The notes beneath the pieces were generated by a model that was not told the origin of the DNA, did not search any database, and saw only the letters and a list, made by a program, of their open reading frames with translations. Positions 7,117 to 52,324 of a stretch of 64,000 nucleotides of DNA are shown here, piece by piece. The stretch is taken from the NCBI RefSeq assembly GCF_056712565.1, contig NZ_CM160072.1; one strand, written 5' to 3'. Made by a program: the position numbers and the translations under genes. How positions within the stretch are numbered: position 1 is the stretch's first letter; the number at the start of each line of letters is the position of its first letter.

Positions 7117-7160
7117 AACACAACGAAAAATATCTCGACCCTACAAATGACGAGGACAAC

Positions 7161-9854: not shown

Positions 9855-11741
9855 ATGTCTTTTAGCGAATTTTATCAGCGTTCGATTAACGAACCGGAGC
9901 AGTTCTGGGCCGAGCAGGCCCGGCGTATTGACTGGCAGACGCCCTTTACGCAAACGCTCGACCACAGCAACCCGCCGTTTGCCCGTTGGTTTTGTGAAGG
10001 CCGAACCAACTTGTGTCACAACGCTATCGATCGCTGGCTGGAGAAACAGCCAGAGGCGCTGGCATTGATTGCCGTCTCTTCGGAAACAGAGGAAGAGCGT
10101 ACCTTTACCTTTCGTCAGCTGCATGACGAAGTGAACGCGGTGGCCTCAATGTTGCGTTCATTGGGGGTGCAGCGTGGCGATCGGGTGCTGGTGTATATGC
10201 CGATGATTGCCGAAGCGCATATTACTCTGCTGGCCTGCGCGCGTATTGGCGCTATTCACTCGGTGGTGTTTGGTGGATTTGCCTCGCACAGCGTGGCGGC
10301 GCGAATTGATGATGCTAAACCGGTGCTGATTGTCTCGGCTGATGCCGGAGCGCGCGGTGGCAAAATCATTCCCTATAAAAAATTACTCGACGATGCGATA
10401 AGTCAGGCGCAGCATCAGCCGCGCCACGTTTTACTGGTGGATCGCGGACTGGCGAAAATGGCGCGCGTCAGCGGGCGGGATGTCGATTTCGCGTCGTTGC
10501 GCCATCAACACATCGGTGCGCGGGTGCCGGTGGCGTGGCTGGAATCCAACGAAACCTCCTGCATTCTCTACACCTCCGGCACGACCGGCAAACCTAAAGG
10601 TGTGCAGCGTGATGTCGGCGGATATGCGGTGGCGCTGGCGACCTCGATGGACACCATTTTTGGCGGCAAAGCGGGCGGCGTGTTCTTTTGTGCTTCGGAT
10701 ATCGGCTGGGTGGTAGGGCATTCGTATATCGTTTACGCGCCGCTGCTGGCGGGGATGGCGACTATCGTTTACGAAGGATTGCCGACCTGGCCGGACTGCG
10801 GCGTGTGGTGGAAAATTGTCGAGAAATATCAGGTTAGCCGCATGTTCTCAGCGCCGACCGCCATTCGCGTGCTGAAAAAATTCCCTACCGCTGAAATTCG
10901 CAAACACGATCTTTCGTCGCTGGAAGTGCTCTATCTGGCTGGAGAACCGCTGGATGAGCCGACCGCCAGTTGGGTGAGCAATACGCTGGATGTGCCGGTC
11001 ATCGACAACTACTGGCAGACCGAATCCGGCTGGCCGATTATGGCGATTGCTCGCGGTCTGGATGACAGGCCGACGCGTCTGGGAAGCCCCGGCGTGCCGA
11101 TGTATGGCTATAACGTGCAGTTGCTCAATGAAGTCACCGGCGAACCGTGTGGCGTCAATGAGAAAGGGATGCTGGTAGTGGAGGGGCCATTGCCGCCAGG
11201 CTGTATTCAGACCATCTGGGGCGACGACGACCGCTTTGTGAAGACGTACTGGTCGCTGTTTTCCCGTCCGGTGTACGCCACTTTTGACTGGGGCATCCGC
11301 GATGCTGACGGTTATCACTTTATTCTCGGGCGCACTGACGATGTGATTAACGTTGCCGGACATCGGCTGGGTACGCGTGAGATTGAAGAGAGTATCTCCA
11401 GTCATCCGGGCGTTGCCGAAGTGGCGGTGGTTGGGGTGAAAGATGCGCTGAAAGGGCAGGTGGCGGTGGCGTTTGTCATTCCGAAAGAGAGCGACAGTCT
11501 GGAAGACCGTGAGGTGGCGCACTTGCAAGAGAAGGCAATTATGGCGCTGGTAGACAGCCAGATTGGCAACTTTGGCCGCCCGGCGCACGTCTGGTTTGTC
11601 TCGCAATTGCCAAAAACGCGATCCGGAAAAATGCTGCGCCGCACGATCCAGGCGATTTGCGAAGGACGCGATCCTGGGGATCTGACGACCATTGATGATC
11701 CGGCGTCGTTGGATCAGATCCGCCAGGCGATGGAAGAGTAG
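9855..11741 (+). CDS. prpE: Propionyl-CoA synthetase
   Basis: 628-aa ORF, acyl-CoA synthetase AMP-binding motif YTSGTTGKPKG. Confidence 0.92.
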   Translation: MSFSEFYQRSINEPEQFWAEQARRIDWQTPFTQTLDHSNPPFARWFCEGRTNLCHNAIDRWLEKQPEALALIAVSSETEEERTFTFRQLHDEVNAVASMLRSLGVQRGDRVLVYMPMIAEAHITLLACARIGAIHSVVFGGFASHSVAARIDDAKPVLIVSADAGARGGKIIPYKKLLDDAISQAQHQPRHVLLVDRGLAKMARVSGRDVDFASLRHQHIGARVPVAWLESNETSCILYTSGTTGKPKGVQRDVGGYAVALATSMDTIFGGKAGGVFFCASDIGWVVGHSYIVYAPLLAGMATIVYEGLPTWPDCGVWWKIVEKYQVSRMFSAPTAIRVLKKFPTAEIRKHDLSSLEVLYLAGEPLDEPTASWVSNTLDVPVIDNYWQTESGWPIMAIARGLDDRPTRLGSPGVPMYGYNVQLLNEVTGEPCGVNEKGMLVVEGPLPPGCIQTIWGDDDRFVKTYWSLFSRPVYATFDWGIRDADGYHFILGRTDDVINVAGHRLGTREIEESISSHPGVAEVAVVGVKDALKGQVAVAFVIPKESDSLEDREVAHLQEKAIMALVDSQIGNFGRPAHVWFVSQLPKTRSGKMLRRTIQAICEGRDPGDLTTIDDPASLDQIRQAMEE

Positions 11742-11914
11742 GTCGGATAAGGCGCTCGCGCCGCATCCGACACCGTGCGCAGATGCCTGATGCGACGCTG
11801 ACGCGTCTTATCATGCCTACAGGCCTGAACCGTAGGTCGGATAAGGCGCTCGCGCCGCATCCGACACCATGCGCAGATGCCTGATGCGACGCTGACGCGT
11901 CTTATCATGCCTAC
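11741..11914. repeat. BIME/REP cluster: about 1.85 tandem copies of a 94-bp unit containing paired REP sequences
   Basis: ggtcggataaggcgctcgcgccgcatccgaca...gcctgatgcgacgctgacgcgtcttatcatgcctac repeated with one mismatch. Confidence 0.8.
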
Positions 11915-11983
11915 CCACTGTTTTTACACAGATAAGTTTCCCCCGCCTTTTTGCACTCATTCATATAAAAAATATATCCCCCT

Positions 11984-11999
11984 ACGAAAACGATTGCTT
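11984..11999 (+). promoter_or_regulatory. PurR-box-like site upstream of codB
   Basis: acgaaaacgattgctt matches 13/16 of the PurR operator consensus ACGCAAACGTTTGCGT; codBA is a known PurR target. Confidence 0.3.
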
Positions 12000-12065
12000 T
12001 TTATCTTCAGATGAATAGAATGCGGCGGATTTTTTGGGTTTCAAACAGCAAAAAGGGGGAATTTC

Positions 12066-13325
12066 GTGTCGCAAGATAACAACTTTAGCCAGGGGCCAGT
12101 CCCGCAGTCGGCGCGGAAAGGGGTATTGGCATTGACGTTCGTCATGCTGGGATTAACCTTCTTTTCCGCCAGTATGTGGACCGGCGGCACTCTCGGAACC
12201 GGTCTTAGCTATCATGATTTCTTCCTCGCAGTTCTCATCGGTAATCTTCTCCTCGGTATTTACACTTCATTTCTTGGTTACATTGGCGCAAAAACCGGCC
12301 TGACCACCCATCTTCTTGCTCGCTTCTCGTTTGGTGTTAAAGGCTCATGGTTGCCTTCACTGCTGCTGGGCGGCACCCAGGTTGGCTGGTTTGGCGTTGG
12401 CGTGGCGATGTTTTCTATTCCGGTGGGCAAGGCAACCGGGCTGGATATTAATTTGCTGATTGCCGTCTCCGGTTTACTGATGACCGTCACCGTCTTCTTT
12501 GGCATTTCGGCGCTGACGGTTCTTTCGGTGATTGCGGTTCCGGCTATCGCCTGCCTTGGCGGTTATTCCGTGTGGCTGGCCGTTAACGGCATGGGCGGCC
12601 TGGACGTATTAAAAGCGGTCGTTCCCGCACAACCGTTAGATTTCAATGTCGCGCTGGCGCTGGTTGTGGGGTCATTCATCAGTGCGGGTACGCTCACCGC
12701 TGACTTTGTCCGGTTTGGTCGCAATGCCAAACTGGCGGTGCTGGTGGCGATGGTGGCCTTTTTCCTCGGCAACTCGTTGATGTTTATTTTCGGTGCAGCG
12801 GGCGCTGCGGCACTGGGGATGGCGGATATCTCTGATGTGATGATTGCTCAGGGCCTGCTGCTGCCTGCGATTGTGGTGCTGGGGCTGAATATCTGGACCA
12901 CCAACGATAACGCGCTCTATGCGTCGGGTTTAGGTTTCGCCAACATTACCGGTATGTCGAGCAAAACCCTTTCGGTGATTAACGGTATTATCGGTACGGT
13001 CTGCGCATTATGGCTGTATAACAATTTTGTCGGCTGGTTGACCTTCCTTTCGGCAGCTATTCCTCCAGTGGGCGGCGTGATCATCGCTGATTATCTGATG
13101 AACCGTCGCCGCTATGAGCACTTTGCGACCACGCGTATGATGAGTGTCAATTGGGTGGCGATTCTGGCGGTCGCGCTGGGGATTGCCGCAGGCCACTGGT
13201 TACCGGGAATTGTTCCGGTCAACGCGGTATTAGGTGGCGCGCTGAGCTATCTGATCCTTAACCCGATTTTGAATCGTAAAACGACAGCAGCAATGACGCA
13301 TGTGGAGGCTAACAGTGTCGAATAA
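12066..13325 (+). CDS. codB: Cytosine permease (NCS1 family)
   Basis: 419-aa multi-TM ORF with GTG start; overlaps codA by 11 bp. Confidence 0.9.
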
Positions 13326-14625: not shown

Positions 14626-14707
14626 ATGCCGGATGCGGCGTGAACACCTTATCCGGCCTACGTAGATCTCTGAAATTGTAGGCCTGATAAGCGGAGCGCA
14701 TCAGGCA
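14626..14707. repeat. REP pair between codA and lacA
   Basis: atgccggatgcggcgtgaacaccttatccggcctac and inverted tgtaggcctgataagcggagcgcatcaggca. Confidence 0.8.
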
Positions 14708-14718
14708 ATTTTGCTTAT

Positions 14719-15330: not shown

Positions 15331-15354
15331 TGCGATCATTCCGCCCTGATATGT

Positions 15355-15390
15355 TGGTCGGATAAGGCGCTCGCGCCGCATCCGACATTG
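15355..15390. repeat. REP element between lacY and lacA
   Basis: ggtcggataaggcgctcgcgccgcatccgaca. Confidence 0.75.
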
Positions 15391-20980: not shown

Positions 20981-21181
20981 ATTCACCACCCTGAATTGAC
21001 TCTCTTCCGGGCGCTATCATGCCATACCGCGAAAGGTTTTGCGCCATTCGGCGAGGCTGACGCCGAAGTGAGATTTAAAATGCTGACGCCAGGTCACAGG
21101 TGAGAGAAAACCCACGCCAATACACCTACGGCGTTTACAGGTATACTCGCTAAAAATTATTCAGCGGGTTTGGAAACAAAG

Positions 21182-21729: not shown

Positions 21730-21946
<217 letters not shown>

Positions 21947-25966: not shown

Positions 25967-27071
25967 AAGCTAATAATACATACACAACGGAAAGCGGTGC
26001 TAAAGGCACCAACAACCAGCAACGATGAAACCAGGCGCTAAATGCACCAATAACACAAACTACGCCGACCCAGATAAGCGGGAACATTGCCAACACCACA
26101 CCATGTGGCCCGGTGGTGATGAATTCATTAAACCAGGTAGTGAGATAAATACCAACGCCATAAAGCACAACCAACAGCATAGGAAATATACTGAAGATAC
26201 CGAAGCGGCTAAATAAAAGTCTTTTATGCAGGCGCATACAGACCGCGTAGCCCACAATCCAACGCCGCCAGCGGCGCCACTCCTCACGCGGACTGTTACA
26301 TTCCTGTGGGTATACGATGCAGCGATTCGCCTGCCGAATACGGTAGCCGTTTGCCACCAATGTCCAGGTGAGATCAAGGTCTTCGACTTTAGTACGATCC
26401 GAGAAACCGAACTTACGCAATACATCAGTACGGAACATCCCGCAGGCACCGCTGATGATAAACGGTGCGCCGCCCAGAAGCTGCTGTAGCGTGCGCTTCA
26501 TAACAATCATCGGCAACTTTACGGTCGCGCGGATGTGTAGCTGCTGTAGCGTGCGCTTCATAACAATCATCGGCAACTTTACGGTCGCGCGGATGTGTGG
26601 TAACAGACCCGCGCCTTTCAACGCAGTAGAGGGAATGCCGCCTACGGCATCAGCGCCACGCTCAATTTCCGCCAGCATATAGCCCATTCCGTCTTGATCG
26701 GGCGGAACATAGGTGTCGGCATCACTTAAAAAAACCTGATCGCAGGTGGCGTAATTGAGGCCATTCATCAGCGCACCACCTTTACCGGTATTTTTTTGCG
26801 TGACGGCAACAAAGCGGTCGCCCCATTTGCGTTTGACTTCCGCCATGACCGCTTCGGTATTGTCCATGGAGCCGTCGTTAACGCAAATTACCCGGCAAAA
26901 ATAAGGGTTACGCAGCAGATTATCCAGTGACTGCGCCAGACACGGGCCTTCGTTATAAGCAGGTATAATGGCGTCAATACAGCCTTTCTTTTGGCTGGGC
27001 TTACGCCTTAACGTACTCAGAAACCATAGCAATATTGCTACGGCCATACATATAAAGATCCAGGTTTTCAT
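25815..27071 (-). CDS. yaiP: Integral-membrane family-2 glycosyltransferase (synthase-like topology)
   Basis: 418 aa; N-terminal TM, CVNDGSMDNT and SDAD (DxD) motifs, EEWRRW (QxxRW-like), four or more C-terminal TM helices; contains a 20-aa tandem duplication. Confidence 0.75.
   Translation of the reverse strand: MKTWIFICMAVAILLWFLSTLRRKPSQKKGCIDAIIPAYNEGPCLAQSLDNLLRNPYFCRVICVNDGSMDNTEAVMAEVKRKWGDRFVAVTQKNTGKGGALMNGLNYATCDQVFLSDADTYVPPDQDGMGYMLAEIERGADAVGGIPSTALKGAGLLPHIRATVKLPMIVMKRTLQQLHIRATVKLPMIVMKRTLQQLLGGAPFIISGACGMFRTDVLRKFGFSDRTKVEDLDLTWTLVANGYRIRQANRCIVYPQECNSPREEWRRWRRWIVGYAVCMRLHKRLLFSRFGIFSIFPMLLVVLYGVGIYLTTWFNEFITTGPHGVVLAMFPLIWVGVVCVIGAFSAWFHRCWLLVPLAPLSVVYVLLAYAIWIIYGLIAFFTGREPQRDKPTRYSALVEVSTAYSHPSVTGTEKLSEA
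26479..26598. repeat. Perfect 60-bp tandem duplication (2 copies) inside yaiP
   Basis: agctgctgtagcgtgcgcttcataacaatcatcggcaactttacggtcgcgcggatgtgt at 26479-26538 repeated exactly at 26539-26598; encodes HIRATVKLPMIVMKRTLQQL twice in frame. Confidence 0.95.
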
Positions 27072-31774: not shown

Positions 31775-31781
31775 GGGGGAA

Positions 31782-31805
31782 ATGCCGGGTTGGATAACCC
31801 GGCAT
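31782..31805. terminator. Hairpin between convergent tauD and hemB (bidirectional terminator candidate)
   Basis: atgccgggtt ggat aacccggcat, 10-bp perfect stem. Confidence 0.55.
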
Positions 31806-31813
31806 AATGATCA

Positions 31814-33970: not shown

Positions 33971-33981
33971 TGGATTTGCCC

Positions 33982-34887
33982 CTATATTTCCAGACACCTG
34001 TTATCACTTAACCCATTACTGGCTTGCTGCCGTAGATATTCCCGTGGCGAGCGATAACCCAGTGCACTATGCGGATGCCATTCGTTATAATGCTCGAACG
34101 CCTCTGCAAGGTTCTTTGCTGCCGTTAACCCGTCTGGTTTGGGCATGACACTGATGTAGTCACGCTTTATCGTTTTCACGAAGCTCTCTGCTATGCCGTT
34201 ACTCTCCGGACTCCGCACCGCCGTGCTCTTCGGTTCAAGCCCCAACATCCGGGCAAACTGCCGTGTTTCATTAGCCCGGTAGCATGAACCATTATCCGTC
34301 AGCCACTCTACTGGAGACGCCGGAAGCTCGTTGCCGAAGCGGCGTTCCACCGCTCCCAGCATGACGTCCTGTACTGTTTCACTGTTGAAGCCGCCCGTAG
34401 TGACCGCCCAGTGCAGTGCCTCACGGTCACAGCAGTCCAGCGCGAACGTGACTCGCAGTTTTTCTCCGTTATCACAGCGGAACTCGAACCCGTCAGAGCA
34501 CCATCGCTGATTACTTTCTTTCACAGCCACTCTGCCTGTATGTGCCCGTTTCGATGGCGGTACAGCAGGTTTTCGCTCAAGCAACAGCGCATTCTGGCGC
34601 ATGATCCGGTAAACACGTTTGGCATTGATCGCAGGCATACCATCAAGTTCTGCCTGTCTGCGAAGCAGCGCCCATACCCGACGATAACCATACGTGGGCA
34701 GCTCTCCGATAACATGGTGTATACGGAGAAGCACATCCGTATCATCAGTGTGACGACTGCGGCGGCCATCCATCCAGTCATCGGTTCGTCTGAGAATGAC
34801 GTGCAACTGCGCACGCGACACCCGGAGACAACGGCTGACTAAGCTTACTCCCCATCCCCGGGCAATAAGGGCGCGTGCGCTATCCAC
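33982..34887 (-). CDS. insD: IS2 transposase OrfB
   Basis: 301-aa ORF with DDE integrase core, ends [29 protein letters not shown]. Confidence 0.9.
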
Positions 34888-35210
34888 TTTTTTGCCCGTC
34901 CATATTCAACGGCTTCTTTGAGGAGTTCATTTTCCATCGTTTTCTTGCCGAGCAGGCGCTGGAGTTCTTTAATCTGCTTCATGGCGGCAGCAAGTTCAGA
35001 GGCAGGAACAACCTGTTCTCCGGCGGCGACAGCAGTAAGACTTCCTTCCTGGTATTGCTTACGCCAGAGAAATAACTGGCTGGCTGCTACACCATGTTGC
35101 CGGGCAACGAGGGAGACCGTCATCCCTGGTTCAAAGCTCTGCTGAACAATTGCGATCTTTTCCTGTGTGGTACGCCGTCTGCGTTTCTCCGGTCCTAAGA
35201 CATCAATCAT
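34845..35210 (-). CDS. insC: IS2 transposase OrfA (HTH)
   Basis: Start at [26 protein letters not shown]; 121 aa; overlaps insD as expected for programmed -1 frameshifting. Confidence 0.9.
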
Positions 35211-52167: not shown

Positions 52168-52272
52168 CACAACGCCCCTGGAGCAAGTTACAGCATAAAA
52201 CGCATAATATTGCTGCGCTAAGAATTATTGCCCGCTGTAGCTAACGATTATATTCCTGGTGTGGCTTTGTAC

Positions 52273-52305
52273 GCCGGATAAGACGCGGCAGGCGTCGCAT
52301 CCGGC
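52273..52305. repeat. REP element downstream of rdgC
   Basis: gccggataagacgcggcaggcgtcgcatccggc. Confidence 0.7.
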
Positions 52306-52324
52306 ATTAAAGGTAAATCAGCAA

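Follow-up and report, generated by a model that had tools for sequence, protein, structure and literature searches.

The spacer between prpE and codB in the window (the whole 64,000-nucleotide stretch of DNA that was analyzed) almost certainly contains an ordinary two-unit BIME-2, an element of an already known kind that shows known behavior, and its two-unit state is probably old in the lineage to which the window belongs. The window is part of a phylogroup-B2 E. coli chromosome and runs from yahK, through the prp, cod, lac, frm, tau, pho and sbcCD genes, to brnQ. Within the spacer, the whole array (11738-11914) comprises two Y-S-Z2 units and one tail-to-tail linker (94 + 83 nt), arranged as follows:

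11738-11772, minus strand: Y-type REP of unit 1, with a GTAG tail that overlaps the prpE stop codon TAG (11739-11741)
11773-11783: short head-to-head linker (S-like) of unit 1, CCGTGCGCAGA, 11 nt, containing G11775
11784-11820, plus strand: Z2-type REP of unit 1
11821-11831: tail-to-tail linker from unit 1 to unit 2, AGGCCTGAACC, 11 nt
11832-11866, minus strand: Y-type REP of unit 2
11867-11877: short head-to-head linker of unit 2, CCATGCGCAGA, 11 nt, containing A11869
11878-11914, plus strand: Z2-type REP of unit 2, with the tail ATCATGCCTAC

The gene prpE ends at 11741 and codB starts at 12066; the array is extragenic, with only the GTAG tail lying on the stop codon. The original prediction had described a 94-bp unit carrying a REP pair, repeated about 1.85 times with one mismatch, and this repeat is real. 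Tandem Repeats Finder reported it at 11738-11914 with a period of 94, 1.9 copies, 98% matches and a score of 347, and a direct-repeat search returned two copies spaced 94 nt apart. The two units differ only by G11775 versus A11869, one mismatch in 83 compared positions.

The type of each REP was assigned by aligning it with the published consensus sequences for Y, Z1 and Z2 (PMC11208160). In both units the Y REP is 30/35 identical to the Y consensus, the best of the three types, and the Z2 REP is 34/36 identical to the Z2 consensus. GTAGG or CCTAC tails are present in all four REPs. The head-to-head linkers CCGTGCGCAGA and CCATGCGCAGA share their motif with GCCGTGCGCAGA, the head-to-head linker of a second array in the window, between yaiL and frmB. 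Folded as single REPs, both types are predicted to form hairpins with internal loops in the stem (Y, -18.8 kcal/mol, z = -4.1; Z2, -14.8 kcal/mol, z = -5.0). For the whole array region the predicted fold (-98.7 kcal/mol, z = -6.0) involves long-range pairing of the two units with each other; as this shows only the mutual complementarity of Y and Z2, we relied on the single-REP folds instead.

A BIME-2 has been described as a y + z2 combination that has a short S linker and is present in several tandem copies; the copies at one locus are well conserved and the copy number per locus differs between strains (PMC3333891). Length polymorphism of BIME-2 loci has been recorded over 51 isolates (PMC1187871). 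The array after prpE agrees with this description at the level of sequence: Y and Z2 REPs, imperfect palindromes with a GTAG/CTAC foot, alternate as inverted pairs, in tandem copies, in intergenic DNA at a 3' end. Its 11-nt head-to-head linkers would correspond to the S linker, and the tail-to-tail linker is also 11 nt long. The copies are alike within the locus and their number differs between strains. The array departs from the type in its Y subtype (GTCGGA...TCCGAC, not GCCGGA...TCCGGC), in the overlap of its first REP with the prpE stop codon through the GTAG tail, and in its Z2 tails (ATCATGCC, not ATCAGGCC); none of these differences is essential. The significance of the array beyond correct annotation is small, as it is a standard BIME-2 whose behavior fits publications since the 1990s. 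The published picture of BIMEs accommodates its tandem units and length polymorphism, as well as the IS621 targeting and the involvement of neighboring BIME-1 copies in a deletion described below.

Since BLAST coverage cannot count the alleles of such an array, its copy number across E. coli was determined with flank-only queries, consisting of 500 bp on either side with the array cut out, so that the span of the match in each record gives the insert length. Even a genome with a single unit aligns, in two overlapping pieces, to approximately 97% of a query that holds two. Among 60 of the 5233 records that match the flank-only query, sampled systematically, the following alleles were found:

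1 unit: 14 of 60 sampled genomes
2 units: 32 of 60
3 units: 4 of 60
8 units (O157:H7 and relatives): 5 of 60
9 units: 1 of 60
interrupted by IS621: 3 of 60
partial match: 1 of 60

The prpE-codB array is a copy-number-variable locus. In O157:H7 its eight units (7.6 copies at 94%) consist of the same components (Y, S, Z2 and linker) and are joined by the same tail-to-tail linker, AGGCCTGAACC, and BEC1-S17 carries 8.8 copies at 97%. With one to nine units, with or without IS621, the spacer is a handy natural length marker that separates E. coli lineages. The original prediction had suggested comparing REP copy number between strains, and rather than being identical everywhere it varies at all three BIME-2-like sites of the window. 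Of 40 genomes sampled with flank-only queries, 24 have a single unit in the yaiL/frmB array and 15 have two; by the same approach, the mak/araJ spacer has four REPs (268 or 244 bp) in 12 and two REPs (approximately 142 bp) in 17 of 30.

In the three interrupted genomes, IS621, a bridge-RNA recombinase element of the IS110 family, is inserted in the last Z2 REP of the array at ...ATCAGGCCT^AC. This site matches the published natural target of IS621, ATCAGGCCTAC (PMC11208160). The window itself contains no IS621, and both of its Z2 REPs are one base off the target (ATCATGCCTAC versus ATCAGGCCTAC).

The alleles also differ in how the array begins. K-12, O157:H7 and most other strains have, as the first element after prpE, a non-REP perfect palindrome composed of two REP "head" arms, which in K-12 are TTGTCGGATGCG...CATCCGGCA (example form TTGTCGGATGCG-TCGCGTGG-CGCATCCGACA). 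In these strains the head-head palindrome is followed by S and Z2, and then by zero to eight Y-S-Z2 units. Tandem Repeats Finder returned nothing at the K-12 locus at a score of at least 80, because the first element is this palindrome and not a Y-REP, which leaves no more than about 1.4 periodic units. The first palindrome unit is missing from B2 and GPEC464, where the Y-REP abuts the stop codon of prpE; its stem begins 1 nt past the stop in the B2 allele. K-12 reads GAAGA-GTAGGT-TATTG at the prpE stop and AACC-GTAGGT-CGGAT at the next unit, and a 97-bp deletion between these GTAGGT microhomologies would yield the exact B2 junction. The fusion of Y-REP and stop codon in B2 would most simply reflect such a loss of the K-12-type non-REP first palindrome. 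None of the sampled three-unit alleles matches the B2 units base for base. The K-12-type first palindrome together with the last 20 nt or so of prpE was also considered as a dispersed repeat family and rejected, as it occurs at a median of one place per genome and at most at two. In SCU-109 and E29, cynX has a 3' end that resembles this palindrome plus the end of prpE.

The picture that we propose is that of an array of Y/Z2 hairpins, organized as head-to-tail repeats at the 3' end of the prpBCDE operon, in which misalignment of the 94-bp repeats, through replication slippage or unequal recombination, would add or remove units. TnpA_REP binds REPs that carry GTAG plus a bubble, cleaves and recombines BIMEs in vitro, and has been proposed as the cause of copy-number variation (PMC3333891); it may also contribute here. 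Slippage, RecA and TnpA_REP would not be distinguishable from sequence.

REP hairpins at the 3' end of operons protect the upstream mRNA and can attenuate transcription. By analogy, the hairpins in the prp transcript may form a 3' structural barrier that stabilizes the mRNA and causes partial termination. A scan of 11600-12120 found no canonical intrinsic terminator on the plus strand from prpE to codB. Gyrase cleavage sites are enriched in BIME-2 elements, which are transcription-independent preferred gyrase sites (PMC6379681), and as DNA the array could likewise be a gyrase-binding site. REPs that start no more than 15 nt from a stop codon can stall ribosomes and reduce expression of the gene that precedes them (Liang 2015, as cited in PMC12306157), which suggests that translation of prpE may be lowered here. 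Spacings of 15 nt or less are found in the window after prpE (approximately 0 nt), lacY (8 nt) and frmB (14 nt).

These considerations raise the question whether copy number and the REP/stop fusion are selected settings that tune PrpE translation, by way of ribosome stalling and trans-translation, and the half-life of prp mRNA per phylogroup. The Y-REP stem, 1 nt past the prpE stop, falls within the 15-nt limit (Liang 2015, as cited in PMC12306157), and the two-unit allele is very stable within B2; both speak for such tuning. However, copy number ranges from one to nine without an obvious link to lifestyle, and a low slippage rate for two units explains the stability in B2 equally well. Nor need an effect on translation be specific to B2, since a strong hairpin also follows the prpE stop in the K-12 and O157 alleles, at a distance of approximately 8 nt. 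We regard selected settings as unlikely. A more explicit version, in which the B2 fusion is a lineage-specific brake on PrpE translation acting through stalling and trans-translation, and the number of units (1-9) is a heritable, reversible dial for the prp operon instead of neutral instability, strikes us as quite improbable.

The array could alternatively be a gene for a naRNA4-like, nucleoid-associated small RNA, whose product binds HU and condenses DNA, with the duplication doubling its dose. Both units match the Rfam model of naRNA4/REP325 (RF02564) in sequence and structure above the curated threshold (11741-11817 at 70.2 bits and 11835-11911 at 68.3 bits; gathering score 59.5). The array lies at a different locus, however, and the match reflects the shared sequence of the BIME-2 unit: RF02564 is effectively a generic model of a Y-Z2 BIME-2 unit, which matches the yaiL/frmB array as well. 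In addition, a scan for a sigma-70-like promoter consensus found none in 11600-12120. A small RNA gene is an unlikely reading of the array.

The original prediction had taken the near-identity of the units as a sign of recent expansion, that is, of a strain-level tandem duplication of the 94-bp REP pair with little time to diverge. The units do differ at just one of 83 positions, and are more alike within the array than units are between phylogroups. Yet ST95-32, ST131 MB1159 and SCU-124, with flanks 98.4-99.9% identical to the window, carry a 176-nt array identical to that of the window, the G/A mismatch included. The presence of the same array and mismatch in divergent B2 lineages indicates that the duplication is older than their diversification. 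The exact insert length of the window was found in 13 of 13 B2-like sampled records (flanks at least 98.4% identical to the window), and among 60 genomes with flanks identical over 1000/1000 positions, 58 had two units, two had one unit and none had three. The difference between the units (1.2%) is of the same order as the divergence of the flanks among B2 lineages (0.1-1.6%). Homogeneity within a locus is, moreover, general for BIME-2 (PMC3333891), and because units at one locus stay homogeneous for long, near-identical tandem BIME units should not be taken as evidence of a recent event. A recent duplication is very unlikely. A repeat collapsed or expanded in a single assembly has a practically negligible probability: although short-read assemblies are error-prone at tandem repeats, the same 176-nt array is present in many independent complete genomes.

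From these comparisons, the two-unit allele is most probably ancestral to the sampled B2 lineages, old and nearly fixed there. The genomes with identical flanks and one unit are FDAARGOS_1304 and DE17, and GN02050 is a third B2 strain with one unit; the recent events seen at the array in B2 are contractions.

The window is collinear with the type strain ATCC 11775 (NZ_CP033092.2) at approximately 99.99% identity. The two differ by a few SNPs and by two insertions private to the window:

26479-26598: perfect 60-bp tandem duplication in yaiP
33971-35301: 1331-bp IS2 within a yaiT-like autotransporter gene

These strain-private changes, the yaiP duplication and the IS2, are located away from the prpE array.

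A pattern scan of the window returned 16 REPs, whereas 50 shuffled versions averaged 0.5. The 16 are distributed over prpE/codB (4), codA/lacA (2), lacY/lacA (1), yaiL/frmB (4), the region downstream of rdgC (1) and mak/araJ (4). Outside the prpE-codB array, the REPs and one REP-like palindrome are:

14627-14707: BIME-1 between the convergent codA and lacA, composed of Y (plus strand), a 16-nt linker and Z1 (minus strand)
15353-15387, minus strand: single Y-type REP between lacY and lacA, with the tail CCAAC, not CCTAC; the same REP is present in K-12
21744-21932: BIME-2 (Z2, Y, Z2, Y) between yaiL and frmB/fghA, with a 101-bp period and 2.1 copies
approximately 42201-42232, minus strand: degenerate REP-like palindrome between yaiW and yaiY, without a GTAG/CTAC tail
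52269-52306, minus strand: single Z2-like REP, 18 nt past the rdgC stop codon
54294-54510: four REPs (Z2, Y, Z2, Y) between the convergent mak and araJ, with a 42-nt head-to-head linker, an atypical BIME

Sites thus exist after the genes for which REPs had been predicted (prpE, codA, lacA, yaiL, yaiW, rdgC and mak), with two corrections: the one after yaiW is degenerate, and the one placed after lacA sits between lacY and lacA, inside the lac operon. The K-12 counterpart of the yaiW/yaiY palindrome barely passes the scan, and only at three mismatches. K-12 has a two-unit BIME-2 between prpB and prpC, whereas the window has none there. The statement that REP clusters mark most operon boundaries does not hold, as just seven of the 28 intergenic regions that measure 40 bp or more and include the 3' end of a gene have REPs (yaiW counted). 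They are present in five of the six convergent intergenic regions of at least 40 bp, and the enrichment really belongs to such roomy convergent spacers.

It had further been proposed that several REPs coincide with places where gene content differs from K-12 and act as recombination junctions. Alignment of the whole window to K-12 revealed four differences in gene content:

left end: ABC-transporter genes in the window versus yahJ and its neighbors in K-12
yahL: 835 bp, present only in K-12
cynRTSX: 3625 bp, present only in K-12
mhp operon: 8920 bp in K-12 versus 62 bp in the window

For cynRTSX, at the codA-lacA junction, the proposal is borne out. BIME-1 elements are pairs of Y and Z1, often with an IHF site. 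The one at 14627-14707 is such a pair in inverted orientation, a single copy in the window (Y 33/35 and Z1 28/29 identical to consensus), and its linker, GTAGATCTCTGAAATT, resembles K-12 linkers. The cynRTSX breakpoint lies inside this element, where the K-12 blocks overlap at 14662-14710 (megablast) or 14651-14710 (blastn). In K-12, copies of the BIME-1 flank cynRTSX on both sides: the BIME-1 after codA has been duplicated along with a 3' fragment of cynR, and a truncated Y, the linker and Z1 are found between cynX and lacA. The single copy of the window is a hybrid of the two, in that its left flank and Y match the left copy of K-12, and its linker and right flank match the right copy. A hybrid of this kind would be the expected product if two direct BIME-1 copies had recombined and deleted the DNA between them. 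Because the right-hand copy in K-12 has a truncated Y, the parental configuration of this deletion is one that we infer. Of 5299 genomes, 985 have the cyn-less codA-BIME-1-lacA junction, and in every one of those sampled the spacer measures 120 bp. Judging by the sampled rows, the junction seems to be mostly restricted to B2-like genomes, whose flanks are at least 98.5% identical to the window.

At the other three differences the proposal fails. In the comparison of the window with K-12, no REPs were present at the yahL, mhp or left-end breakpoints, which fall outside REPs, and REP involvement in these differences was rejected. The coincidence of gene-content boundaries with REPs is therefore limited to one of four cases, and does not extend to several. 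A degenerate REP-like hairpin is present approximately 25 bp inside the right boundary of mhp in K-12. E29 offers a further natural example of a REP at such a junction: lacA is missing there, and the left arm of a head-head palindrome after cynX is joined to the right arm of the lacY/lacA REP and its flank.

In three of the 60 systematically sampled genomes, IS621 was found inside the last Z2 REP of the prpE|codB BIME-2, with the insertion point at ...ATCAGGCCT^AC. IS621 is a member of the IS110 family and uses a bridge-RNA recombinase. The Z2 tails of the BIME-2 in the window read ATCATGCCTAC, with one mismatch to the published IS621 target. The features at this and the neighboring sites are as follows:

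L010 (2012EL-2448), L020 (E29) and L021 (CPww7): prpE|codB spacers bearing IS621
K-12 L007 1350–1633: 200-bp tandem duplication of BIME-1 and the cynR 3′ end (codA|cynR)
Window 15353–15387: lacY|lacA Y-REP

The codA|cynR duplication of K-12 carries the annotation "partial hypothetical protein," and in some cyn+ strains (E29 and CPww7) the codA|cynR spacer measures 39 bp and is without any BIME-1. Strain E29 also lacks lacA. At its cynX|lacY junction (L023), the left arm of a head-head palindrome after cynX runs directly into the lacY|lacA Y-REP, of which the right arm and its flank are present. Judged from the structure of this junction, the loss of lacA looks like a REP-mediated deletion.

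The 3′ end of cynX and its palindrome in SCU-109 (L022) closely resemble the 3′ end of prpE and the first palindrome after it in K-12 (L003). The last approximately 20 nt of the SCU-109 gene and the next palindrome read CGCCAGATGATGGAAGAGTAA-ATTATTGTCGGATG...CATCCGACA, and the corresponding K-12 prpE sequence is CGCCAGGCGATGGAAGAGTAG-GTTATTGTCGGATG... The cynX gene of K-12, in contrast to that of SCU-109, terminates inside a truncated BIME-1. A dispersed family of such gene-end-plus-palindrome sequences was ruled out, as they occupy a median of one and at most two places per genome.

Three other sites differ from K-12. The two-unit BIME-2 (4 REPs) present between prpB and prpC in K-12 is wholly missing from the window (7117–7160), where the segment is 27 bp long compared to 236 bp. 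In place of the 8.9-kb mhpR-mhpABCDFE-mhpT region of K-12, the window holds 62 bp (21051–21112) annotated as a GlxA-family regulator gene fragment; the breakpoints between the two lie outside REPs. Between tauD and hemB, K-12 has a GC-rich palindromic element (CCCTCGCCCCCTTGGGGAGAGGGTTAGGGTGAGGGG), presumably similar to the BoxC repeat; at this position the window (31775–31813) carries just a simple hairpin, GCCGGGTT-GGAT-AACCCGGC.

Two further features lie within genes:

Window 26479–26598, minus strand: 60-bp tandem duplication within yaiP (glycosyltransferase), 2.0 copies, 100% identity
Window 33971–35301: IS2 copy of 1331 bp, interrupting a yaiT-like autotransporter gene

The yaiP duplication keeps the reading frame and adds 20 codons. 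It was not found in the ATCC 11775 record or in any top-scoring complete genome, the segment spanning 261 bp in all of these best hits versus 321 bp in the window, and is therefore a strain-private mutation or an assembly error. Likewise, IS2 was not found at the yaiT-like site in ATCC 11775 and the complete genomes among the best hits. The ATCC 11775 alignment blocks that flank it overlap by 5 bp, which is consistent with a target duplication. In K-12, the same yaiT-like gene is instead interrupted by IS3, and an IS2 copy sits in yaiX.
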